Notes under the pieces: generated by a model
Seen by the model: only the letters and a program-made list of their open reading frames with translations
Told to the model about the DNA's origin: nothing
Databases searched by the model: none
Made by a program: the position numbers and the translations under genes
Part shown: positions 4,684 through 53,650 of the stretch, one piece after another
Numbering within the stretch: the first letter of the stretch is position 1
How the letters are laid out: every line of letters begins with the position of its first letter
NCBI GenBank assembly: GCA_027451585.1
Contig: DAIDIZ010000044.1
Location: 1-61,092, forward strand
From: Chlamydiota bacterium
GTDB taxonomy: Bacteria; Chlamydiota; Chlamydiia; Chlamydiales; SM23-39
Direction of reading: 5' to 3'
DNA length: 61,092 nucleotides

Positions 4684-4779
4684 TATACTCGTTCCACCCC
4701 AAAATGGCCCAAGAAAACCGAATTTAAAGCATCAAATTTTTTATTGAAAATTTGATGCTTTAAATTCGGTTTTCTTGGG
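4684..4779. repeat. family A palindromic repeat (right outer arm missing)
   Basis: The sequence is TATACTCGTTCCACCCCAAAATGGCCCAAGAAAACCGAATTTAAAGCATCAAATTTT..AAAATTTGATGCTTTAAATTCGGTTTTCTTGGG. The inner 70 bp is a near-perfect palindrome. Confidence 0.85.
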
Positions 4780-18545: not shown

Positions 18546-18606
18546 TATACTCGTTCCACTCTAAAGATGCTCAAAAAAACCGAATTTAAAGCATCAAATT
18601 TTTATA
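18546..18606. repeat. family A repeat, left arm only
   Basis: The sequence is TATACTCGTTCCACTCTAAAGATGCTCAAAAAAACCGAATTTAAAGCATCAAATTT. It lies between convergent genes. Confidence 0.8.
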
Positions 18607-20163: not shown

Positions 20164-20201
20164 CCGGCCAAAAAACCGGCTTTTGAATCATTTCCGGTAT
20201 A
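20164..20201. repeat. family B repeat overlapping the hemE 3' end
   Basis: CCGGCCAAAAAACCGGCTTTTGAATCATTTCCGGTATA. The last four codons and the TGA of hemE lie inside it. Confidence 0.75.
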
Positions 20202-23193: not shown

Positions 23194-23845
23194 TTAGAGG
23201 CCGTGAGTTGTCGCAAAAACTCTTCGACAGGAACAACCGGAAAGCCTCGATACACCTCTCTTCTTTTTCCTTGTGTTGGGAGATAAATCAGAAGAGCGTT
23301 TCACTTCGATTGCCCCAAAACCCCGAGGCCCATAGATCACAAAATCCACTTCGAGCTTGGTGGCTGTCTGCCAAAAATAGAGAACATGCCTTTCTTTTTG
23401 CAAATGGACCCAAGCTCTTATATACTCGTTCCACTCCAAAATGGCCCAAGAAAACCGAATTTAAAGCATCAATTTTTTATTGGAAATTTGATGGCTTTAA
23501 ATCGGCTTGCTTGGGCCATTTTGGAGTGGAACGAGTATAGACAGATGTAATCCCTTAACGTCTGATCAGGGTGCTTTGCCCCCCAAATAAGAGAGATCAT
23601 CCCCGTTTTTCCTCGATCAAAGCATGGATCTCGGGCAAAAGATGAGGAACTCGTTGCACCTCATCGAGAATGAGCGCTTGTCCCGGACGCATCGCGGCAA
23701 CCACATCACGAATCTTCTCAGGCGCTGCCAGGGAGAGCCTCTCCTCTTCACCTAAAAGAAGGTCGACCTCCCCGTCCCCCCAGGACCGAGAAGAAAATAG
23801 CTCTCTTCGGGAGGAGCAAGCTCCCTTTCTGTGTAATCTGCTAAC
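23194..23845 (-). pseudogene. decayed AAA+ ATPase (AAA_14 + DUF4143-type) gene, frameshifted and interrupted by a family A repeat
   Basis: The minus strand reads MLADYTERELAPPEESYFLLGPGGTGRSTFF*, then ...ALILDEVQRVPHLLPEIHALIEE in another frame. The repeat follows, then LEVDFVIYGPRGFGAIEVKRS. Confidence 0.6.
23421..23539. repeat. family A palindromic repeat, full-length type copy (119 bp)
   Basis: TATACTCGTTCCACTCCAAAATGGCCCAAG...CTTGGGCCATTTTGGAGTGGAACGAGTATA. The outer 30 bp of the two arms are perfectly complementary. Confidence 0.9.
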
Positions 23846-25278: not shown

Positions 25279-25284
25279 AAATTA

Positions 25285-25329
25285 GGCCGGAAATGATTCA
25301 AAAGTCGATTTTTGCATCATTTCCGGTAA
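25285..25329. repeat. family B palindromic repeat
   Basis: GGCCGGAAATGATTCAAAAGTCGATTTTTGCATCATTTCCGGTA, located 7 nt after the hemL stop. Confidence 0.8.
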
Positions 25330-25424: not shown

Positions 25425-25847
25425 ATGACTTCCAACGCGAGTTCACCACAAGTCCCATCCCCGCCTTTTAGACCCCATCCAACATCATTTTCACGCCCCT
25501 TTCCAACACAAAAGGATCAAGTCCTCAGTGTGGATTTCGATAAAGTGGCTTTAGTGGGTACACTTAAACTCTTCCCTACAGAACAGCTAAAACCTTCATT
25601 CTTAGACTGCCTTACTACAGGCTTCGCCTACGCTTTCGGAGCTAGCTTGGGTATGATTAGCGGATTCGTGGTCATTTCTGTAATTAAGAGGATTTTTCAA
25701 AGCGAATTCGGACCAGAAGCGCCAACTGGAGAGGCGGCACCGAGGATTTTTCAGAGCAGATTCGGACCAGAAGCGCCAACTGATGGGGCGATACCGGGGA
25801 TTGCTCTCCAGACAATCTCATCGCGTTTCTTCGGACCCATTTCCTAA
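25425..25847 (+). CDS. hypothetical membrane protein with tandem 18-aa repeat
   Basis: Pro/Ser-rich N-terminus, a hydrophobic segment (GFAYAFGASLGMISGFVVISVI), and RIFQS(E/R)FGPEAPT repeated twice. Confidence 0.5.
   Translation: MTSNASSPQVPSPPFRPHPTSFSRPFPTQKDQVLSVDFDKVALVGTLKLFPTEQLKPSFLDCLTTGFAYAFGASLGMISGFVVISVIKRIFQSEFGPEAPTGEAAPRIFQSRFGPEAPTDGAIPGIALQTISSRFFGPIS
25689..25796 (+). repeat. 2 x 54-bp in-frame tandem repeat
   Basis: The units start AGGATTTTTCAAAGCGAATTCGGACCAGAAGCGCCAACTG... and AGGATTTTTCAGAGCAGATTCGGACCAGAAGCGCCAACTG... They differ at about 9 of 54 positions. Confidence 0.9.
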
Positions 25848-25865: not shown

Positions 25866-25985
25866 TTTACTCGCTCGAGTCTAAAGTTACCTTAAGAAAA
25901 CCGAATTTGAAGCGTCAAATTCCCAGTAAAAATTTGACGCTTTAAACTCGGTTTTCTTAAGGTAACTTTAATTGGTGAATTGATA
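25866..25985. repeat. family A repeat, divergent copy with compensated arms
   Basis: CTAAAGTTACCTTAAGAAAACCGAATTTGAAGCGTCAAATT...AATTTGACGCTTTAAACTCGGTTTTCTTAAGGTAACTTTAA. Confidence 0.8.
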
Positions 25986-36017: not shown

Positions 36018-36086
36018 ATCTCGACTTTGTACATTTTTTGAACGCACTCTCCGGAGATTCCGGCAAAAAATGTACAAAGTCGAGAT
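36018..36086. repeat. family C palindromic repeat, full copy (69 bp)
   Basis: ATCTCGACTTTGTACATTTTTT...AAAAAATGTACAAAGTCGAGAT. The 22-bp arms are perfect and the spacer is 25 bp. Confidence 0.9.
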
Positions 36087-48514: not shown

Positions 48515-48562
48515 TATACCGGAAATGATGCAAAAGTCGGCTTTTGAATCATTTCCGGTATA
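48515..48562. repeat. family B palindromic repeat, full type copy (48 bp)
   Basis: TATACCGGAAATGATGCAAAAGTCGGCTTTTGAATCATTTCCGGTATA. Confidence 0.9.
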
Positions 48563-48571
48563 TCGCCGATA

Positions 48572-48617
48572 TATACCCATTCCACTCCAAAATGGCCCAA
48601 ACAAACCGAATTGAAAA
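48572..48617. repeat. family A repeat, left-arm fragment abutting the autotransporter start
   Basis: TATACCCATTCCACTCCAAAATGGCCCAAACAAACCGAATTGAAA. Confidence 0.7.
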
Positions 48618-53614: not shown

Positions 53615-53650
53615 ATCTCGACTTTGTACATTCTTTGCCGGCATCTCCGC
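53615..53650. repeat. family C repeat, single arm
   Basis: ATCTCGACTTTGTACATTCTTTGCCGGCATCTCCGC is the reverse-complement type of the 873-916 copy. Confidence 0.75.

Follow-up and report, generated by a model that had tools for sequence, protein, structure and literature searches.

A palindromic repeat family of an uncultured chlamydia is probably an IS630-type MITE

Introduction

Contig 44 of an uncultured chlamydia MAG (G000) raises a simple question: what is the palindromic sequence that recurs, whole or in part, seven times along its 61,092 nucleotides, and what keeps its hairpin intact? The contig, hereafter the window, belongs to an assembly of 82 contigs, 1.37 Mb and 45.5% G+C that is 85% complete. 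An initial annotation described the repeat, family A, as an element of about 120 bp that is MITE- or REP-like and might serve as a bidirectional terminator between convergent genes. We have followed the family through its own genome and through other genomes, and we conclude, with a probability of about 85%, that it is an IS630/Tc1-mariner MITE, with termini from an IS630-family IS of the same genome, that inserts at TA and keeps its hairpin while transposing.

Results

Family A in the window and in its genome

All seven places named in the initial annotation were found again. A 30-nt terminus matched the window seven times at ≤3 mismatches, with 0 matches expected from 100 dinucleotide-preserving shuffles, and a repeat finder recovered all seven places together with their mutual inverted-repeat relations. 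The family is real and stands far above chance. Its places in the window, and one adjoining feature, are as follows.

58784..58951, arm polarity alpha->beta on the + strand: full-length copy of the candidate MITE, 168 bp counting the TA at each end, with a YidD-like ORF on one side and a convergent SulP transporter gene on the other
23421..23539: centre-deleted copy, 119 bp, both 30-bp termini perfect
4684..4779, + strand: truncated copy, left terminus present, right terminus absent
18546..18606, + strand: left-end fragment of ~61 bp in a convergent spacer, 4 nt past the stop of the upstream gene
25866..25985: copy of a divergent subfamily, ~120 bp; its centre is deleted and its termini are degenerate, and the inner stem of 40 nt is intact
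48572..48617, + strand: left-end fragment of ~46 bp, directly upstream of an autotransporter start codon
60918..60953, + strand: terminal fragment with a beta-type arm, 36 bp, 100% inverted-repeat match, from a copy interrupted by an ISAs1-like IS
60954..61092, + strand: left end of the ISAs1-like IS (CAGGGCGATTGCATGATAAAT...), which ends the contig and is separate from family A

The census proposed in the initial annotation showed that the family extends far beyond the window. BLAST located 121 places in the source assembly and a profile search 139, the latter summing to 13.2 kb, or ~1% of the assembly, and comprising 21 full copies, 24 copies of 100–159 bp, 72 shorter fragments and 22 copies cut by contig ends. 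At least 22 of the 164 contig ends fall within a family A copy.

An element exists as described, but its standard form is 167–168 bp rather than about 120 bp. The copy at 58784-58951, at first taken for a variant with a larger loop, aligns end to end with 14 other copies of 167–171 bp (n = 15; mean pairwise identity 92%) and is therefore the typical form; the element proper measures ~164 bp (TACTCGTTCC...GGAACGAGTA). The 119-bp copy at 23421-23539, which had been called full, covers profile positions 1–167 but is without ~48 central bp, and is an internal-deletion derivative. A short subfamily propagating at 119 bp was ruled out, as breakpoints are not shared among the copies of 100–159 bp; these are therefore independent deletions or truncations.

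As first noted, family A has no coding capacity of its own and gives rise only to spurious or extended ORFs. Non-coding, 167–168 bp long and a hairpin throughout, it falls within the size range of MITEs (<300 bp). The hairpin predicted from the letters was borne out on folding: 58784-58951 as ssDNA gives -53.9 kcal/mol (z = -14.5), and 23421-23539 as RNA forms one hairpin of -75.2 kcal/mol (z = -14.0).

Several copies in the window carry marks of their own. The YidD-like ORF at 58406-58867 (Pfam YidD, 6e-12, residues 49–98) runs into the full-length copy, from which its final ~28 codons are taken, so that its C-terminal tail was replaced or extended by the insertion. Weak outward sigma-70-like hexamer pairs (9/12 matches) lie at 58782-58811 (-) and 58946-58974 (-); they use the element's TTGGGC and terminal TATA, and their count is no higher than in shuffles. 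The 23421-23539 copy occupies a divergent intergenic region of ~900 bp, compared with ~114 bp for the orthologous spacer in sister genome G003, where the element is absent. At 4684-4779 the inner hairpin has been re-symmetrised, with two alpha-type arms that form a perfect 33-nt palindrome.

The copy at 25866-25985 had been listed as full and divergent. It belongs to a divergent subfamily, but it is centre-deleted and its termini are degenerate; by inverted-repeat search its inner stem is 95% complementary. Upstream of it, ...GCAAGCACTA is a relic of the sister IS630 terminus type, and a tandem duplication of 54 bp (85% identity) closely precedes the copy, at 25688-25795. The fragment at 48572-48617 does abut the autotransporter start codon, as had been described, and a family B element of 48 bp (48515-48562, see below) lies 10 bp upstream of the fragment. 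The ISAs1-like IS end CAGGGCGATTGC... begins at 60954 and continues past the contig end.

An IS630-family IS with the same termini

The initial annotation had called for a search for an IS with matching terminal inverted repeats, and one was found. The outer 30 bp of family A are the terminal repeats of an IS630-family IS, remnants of which lie in the same genome on contigs C25, C36, C40 and C52. On C25 (reverse complement), the terminus TATACTCATTCCACTCCAAAGTTACCCAAG is followed by 42 nt and then by the ATG of an IS630 transposase N-terminus that matches HTH_33 and the NCBIfam IS630 equivalog NF033545. On C36, C40 and C52, the transposase C-terminus (...IKLNPIKVG) is followed by a stop, 12 nt and then CTTGGGCATCTTTGGAGTGGAACGAGTATA, beyond which each contig continues with its own, different flank. 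The C52 right end is identical to the left terminus of 58784-58951 at 30/30 positions and the C25 end to a MITE copy on C15 at 29/30; the terminus variant AAAGTTACC noted for 25866-25985 is shared with these C25 and C15 ends. Inward of the shared 30 bp, IS and MITE are unrelated. A transposase relative, 53–62% identical, matches DDE_3 at 1e-30 and NF033545 at 162 bits.

The 85%-complete MAG yielded no intact transposase for the matching IS. The piece on C25 has an in-frame stop and is truncated, that on C36 is a remnant, and those on C40 and C52 begin at contig ends; intact relatives of 342–346 aa are present in other genomes. A single metagenome scan for an intact parent IS yielded just one intact IS630 element, which comes from a different lineage and is 37% identical. 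A closed Parachlamydiaceae chromosome has no more than a decayed sister IS of ~1.1 kb, bounded by TATAGAGGTTCC. Relatives of family A elsewhere look more recently active, for example in G016, where 19 copies average 95% identity (up to 99.4%) and many IS630 C-termini lie at contig ends. The IS ends seen in G016 (…GGAAGCACTATA) are unlike the MITE ends there (…GGAACGGGTATA), so cross-mobilisation would have to be assumed in that genome.

A second IS630 N-terminal remnant was noticed at C32:4841-5240, its protein 87% identical to the C25 copy. Its terminus, TATAGTGATTCTGGTCC, is the type found at IS ends in G016, G013 and G007; the remnant has a TA in common with a terminus of family B and is cut off by another mobile element. 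The ISAs1-like IS was also considered as parent, on the strength of C74, where a transposase C-terminus is followed by a family A terminus. It was ruled out by copies on C3, C69, C73 and C45, where the IS has CAGGG...CCCTG ends of its own; the C74 sequence is thus a recombinant junction, and position 60954 of the window marks an insertion into a family A copy. This IS has ~10 left ends in the genome and leaves pieces at the ends of C45, C74, C3, C69 and C73.

Target site and genomic setting

All intact family A ends read TA-TAC...GTA-TA, and immediately beyond the conserved core ~88% of 174 ends have the three bases T-A-T. No duplication longer than TA was seen between the two sides of copies, either in the source genome or among 46 copies elsewhere. 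At 18 junctions, which read ...GGAACGAGTA-TA-TACTCGTTCC..., two termini have exactly one TA in common, as expected if one element had entered the duplicated TA of another. In the IS630 family, insertion is almost confined to TA, which is duplicated (ISY100, PMC2170065). From the flank statistics, the logic of the junctions and this rule of the family, we infer that the element is TACTCG...CGAGTA between a TA duplication. The search for empty sites yielded none: sister genomes are only ~70% identical, mine-drainage reads containing the genome (2–3x depth) held no joints across any element, and exact-protein look-ups with flanking genes gave no match.

Termini often meet. At 28 of 173 ends (16%) a second family A terminus follows directly, against ~2% expected on the assumption that the 9,472 intergenic TA sites are used evenly. 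Beyond the TA of the 110 non-abutting ends, the next dinucleotide is again TA in 28%, compared with 5% genome-wide, and this TA-TA preference accounts for much of the excess abutment. Sister elements are abutted as well, at IS ends of the form ...AAGCACTA-TA-MITE in G016 and at the family B end beside the C32 IS630 copy.

At most 5 of the 139 places lie within ORFs, though ~87% of the genome is coding. For the 88 places with two flanking genes in our crude, ORF-based gene set (87% coding), the spacers were distributed as follows.

Tandem spacers: 53 family A places; 670 genome-wide
Convergent spacers: 22 family A places; 184 genome-wide
Divergent spacers: 13 family A places; 194 genome-wide

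The convergent excess, 22 against ~15 expected, is not significant (chi-square ~3.7, 2 df), and arm polarity, which every copy has through differences at fixed positions between its arms, bears no significant relation to the direction of flanking genes (9 vs 3 in tandem contexts). An intrinsic terminator was rejected: the ends consist of GAGTATA and a variable flank, with no T-run, and no terminator-like site was called. The bidirectional terminators suggested by the initial annotation were thus not borne out.

Distribution among genomes

Family A occurs in five of the seven genomes of the genus and was not found in the other two, which are 96–99% complete. At the family level, 2 other genera of 17 sampled were positive, and a search of 16 other families of the order did not find it. 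Orthologous spacers in sister genomes are without the element; these presence/absence differences between related genomes and the ~139 dispersed places fit a MITE.

Among 185,579 species genomes, a paired-terminus pattern matched 44 loci, which belong to 17 assemblies. The same palindrome of 166–171 bp (156 bp in one) is present in at least 12 Chlamydiota assemblies: twelve of the 17 are MAGs of this phylum, some vaguely labelled at NCBI, to which the closed Parachlamydiaceae chromosome is added. The same termini enclose other interiors in 3 chlamydial MAGs, and the same 19-nt termini enclose unrelated, non-palindromic interiors in the gammaproteobacterial MAGs Alteromonas, Kangiella and NORP44; mobilisation by this type of transposase therefore does not strictly require the full hairpin. 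In an Alteromonas MAG, an intact 346-aa IS630 transposase, 41% identical, adjoins TATACCCGTTCCAC. The outer ~14 bp are thus the recognition motif of this IS630 subgroup, and a deeply conserved one. The gammaproteobacterial MITEs with terminus TATACCCGTTCCACCTCAA measure 163–182 bp (loci L081, L082 and L096 in Alteromonas, L058 in Kangiella, L093 in NORP44; L116 is listed too). Family A had no match in plasmids or in 5,426 E. coli genomes (20,395 records; blastn, word size 11).

A hairpin conserved between genomes and decaying within one

For comparison between genomes we aligned 18 copies from about 12 genomes (identity mean 63%, minimum 46%). RNAalifold predicted 68 pairs, 45 of them with compensatory double changes. 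A recount of the inner stem, which covers 39 pairs inside the 30-bp termini and leaves out one misaligned row, gave 94% pairing and compensation at 29/39 pairs; column shuffles reached at most 73% paired and 27 compensated pairs, and sliding the partner by 1–3 columns gave at most 52% paired. Across genomes, compensatory changes thus preserve the stem of roughly 80 bp. Three features are invariant: the termini, the centre (A/G)TATT-N7-AATA(T/C) and, ~45 nt in, a motif of GAAAG type. In nearly all genera the arms also differ from each other in a fixed way (...CGAATTGAAAG... vs ...CGA-TTCAAAG...), so that a base is bulged out and most genomes also have a mismatch. Symmetrised copies exist, among them the one at 4684-4779 in the window and locus L095 in MAG BP7.bin23.

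Stem changes in the 15 full copies of the source genome are nearly all one-sided: 62 are of this kind, 36 pair-breaking and 26 wobble, against a single compensated pair, where 1.1 would be expected by chance. Because resident copies decay without compensation, the structure is not maintained at their loci but along the transposing lineage. These data argue for a hairpin kept only in the propagating lineage, through selection at the level of the element or occasional arm-to-arm copying; the persistence of the arm asymmetry indicates that such copying is rare. In Rfam 15, only generic miRNA-precursor hairpin models responded, at 17–50 bits against thresholds of 48–200. An IHF-type site in the arms was considered and rejected, as near matches in G000 are, by eye, not conserved in other genomes.

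Family B and other repeats

The source genome holds a second palindromic MITE family, family B, with 79 termini of the type TATACCGGAAATGATTC.

Copies in the window: 48515-48562, 25283-25328, 60871-60916, 20171-20201, also ~834 and ~19307
Copies elsewhere: C9:6284-6453, C24:24711-24879, C63:1385-1557, C73:37331-37500

Full copies are 169–173 bp and minimal forms 48 bp, with hairpins of -80 to -110 kcal/mol. The layout resembles that of family A, with TATAC ends, a GAAAGC motif and a GTATT-N7-AATAC centre, and family B frequently adjoins family A fragments. Its parent IS was not found. A 23-nt stretch of its interior is 91% identical to family A-like elements of another MAG; this short match and the positional motifs hint at one palindromic core with different termini. 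Chimeras at C78:16681-16780 and C82:1046-1162 join ~42 bp of a family A left terminus to a family B right half (...CCGAATTTTGAATCATTGTCGGTATA).

A 20-mer, AAAAATGTACAAAGTCGAGA, occurs 68 times in the genome at ≤2 mismatches, and also in a related genus (L033, ~2030). In the window it lies at 897-916, 36019-36038 (-), 36066-36085 and 53616-53635 (-), perhaps as one more dispersed repeat or as a regulatory or promoter motif common to these sites.

Discussion

The shared termini, the TA flanks, the distribution and the contrast between covariation and decay are together best explained by an IS630-type MITE mobilised in trans. The IS630 transposase would bind the 30-bp repeats through its N-terminal helix-turn-helix domains, excise the element and paste it into a TA, the duplication of which would produce the TA-TAC...GTA-TA ends. 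A preference for TA sites preceded by TA would lead to frequent landing at a TA beside the terminus of the same or a sister element, and insertions would persist almost solely in intergenic DNA. The inner ~108 bp, which are not IS-derived, would form an ancient palindromic core. Its hairpin would be preserved only in the lineage that goes on transposing, and inserted copies would decay by uncompensated substitutions, centre deletions and truncations.

Could the structure instead serve the host at each locus, as a terminator or insulator, a stabiliser of mRNA 3′ ends or a site for RNase III/E? The RNA hairpin, at -75 kcal/mol, is very stable, nearly all copies are intergenic with a mild convergent excess (22 vs ~15 expected), and Correia and ERIC elements act on transcripts in this way (PMC10969869). 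Yet resident copies lose pairing (36 breaking and 26 wobble changes vs 1 compensated) and most are truncated, orthologous spacers of sister species do without the element, no T-run or terminator-like call was obtained, and neither the convergent excess nor the polarity bias (9 vs 3) is significant. The combination of resident decay with covariation between genomes argues against a function at each locus, and we consider this account quite improbable. Covariation of the arms might also arise with no selection on the hairpin, if changes were mirrored by copying of one arm onto the other, through hairpin-templated repair or gene conversion, in the founders of bursts. Such an origin is suggested by 2 of 22 long G000 copies that have two alpha arms, including 4684-4779 with its perfect 33-nt palindrome, and by the L095 element of BP7.bin23, the arms of which are essentially identical. 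We nevertheless find it doubtful as the general explanation, for whole-arm copying would erase the bulge and mismatch that are fixed in nearly all genera, and the 15 resident copies bear no sign of patch conversion.

The REP-like alternative in the initial annotation implies an element of REP/RAYT or IS200/IS605 type, moved as ssDNA by a Y1 (HUH) transposase. Many intergenic copies of a palindromic hairpin would fit such an element, but no match to Y1_Tnp (PF01797) was found in the assembly (85% complete), and at 168 bp family A is four to eight times the length of REPs (20–40 nt). Its termini are identical to those of an IS630-family IS, and TA-flanked ends are typical of Tc1/mariner-type DDE transposition; we give this alternative almost no credence. 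The MITE-like part of the same description stands, with an IS630-family IS bearing the same 30-bp termini in the same genome and a family that is genome-wide and present in relatives.

Returning to the IS630-type MITE, we put forward tentatively a further idea, one that we would ourselves call unlikely: far from being filler, the ~168-bp palindromic core may act as a conserved chassis and favour by itself the transposition of very short elements of IS630 type. Its parts would be the fixed length of 166–171 bp, the AT-rich centre (A/G)TATT-N7-AATA(T/C), a bulge that gives polarity and GAAAG ~45 nt from each end. Extrusion as a cruciform could bring both cleavage sites together at a four-way junction, and would spare the cost of looping DNA below its persistence length. 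At least two terminus classes occur on the chassis layout in the source genome, family A (TATACTCGTTCC) and family B (TATACCGGAAATGA), and these, with the shared 23-nt interior, suggest that termini were swapped onto a selected core.

The family matters in several respects. Taking up ~1% of the genome and at least 22 of 164 contig ends, it is among the main causes of the fragmentation of chlamydial MAGs. It gives rise to altered or spurious ORFs, as in the YidD-like tail and upstream of the autotransporter gene. With a family A model, environmental Chlamydiota could be annotated better. The family also shows that elements of IS630 type, together with their MITEs, have long been active in obligate intracellular bacteria. 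Strong covariation between genomes beside free decay of resident copies makes this a clean case of selection on structure at the level of the element, not the host, and the role of hairpins in the success of MITEs becomes directly testable.

Comparison with known systems

Family A is a known kind of element, an IS-derived MITE; what appears new is its occurrence in Chlamydiota. In plants, Stowaway MITEs are Tc1/mariner-derived, TA-flanked and hairpin-forming, are often nested in one another, and are mobilised in trans by mariner-like transposases, sometimes with limited similarity of the ends. These elements belong to eukaryotes and are unrelated to family A in sequence. Full-text literature searches found no chlamydial MITE, and Chlamydia goes unmentioned in a 2024 review of MITEs in prokaryotes (PMC10969869).

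Among bacterial repeats, Rickettsia palindromic elements (RPE) are likewise palindromic and reside in an obligate intracellular bacterium (PMC10969869), but typically they are inserted within genes, in frame, and no IS is known as their parent, whereas family A is almost wholly intergenic. ERIC/IRU (127 bp) shares with family A the full-length imperfect palindrome, the terminal TA and the intergenic location, and ERIC RNA hairpins can alter transcript stability (PMC10969869, PMC2229807). ERIC has no known parent IS; family A is longer and has 30-bp IS630 termini, and membership in ERIC was rejected, as family A had no blastn match (word size 11) among 20,395 ERIC-carrying E. coli records. The Correia/NEMIS elements of Neisseria are MITEs with terminal repeats of ~24–26 bp and a TA duplication, and their paired RNA termini are cut by RNase III (PMC10969869, PMC2229807). 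Their interiors are not fully palindromic and some have an IHF site, whereas family A has, by eye, no conserved IHF consensus.

The closest described system is RUP/IS630-Spn1 of Streptococcus pneumoniae. RUP is 107 bp long, with ~108 copies, IS630-like termini and a TA target, and inserts into other mobile elements (PMC2229807). Like family A it is short, non-coding, multicopy and intergenic, it shares its terminal repeats with an IS630-family IS that resides in the same genome, and its target is TA, the probable target of family A (PMC2229807, PMC10969869); both tend to insert into or beside other mobile elements. The two differ in length (107 vs 168 bp) and phylum and have no sequence similarity. 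Unlike RUP, family A forms a near-perfect hairpin over its full length, and its length, centre motif and arm asymmetry are conserved across many genera.
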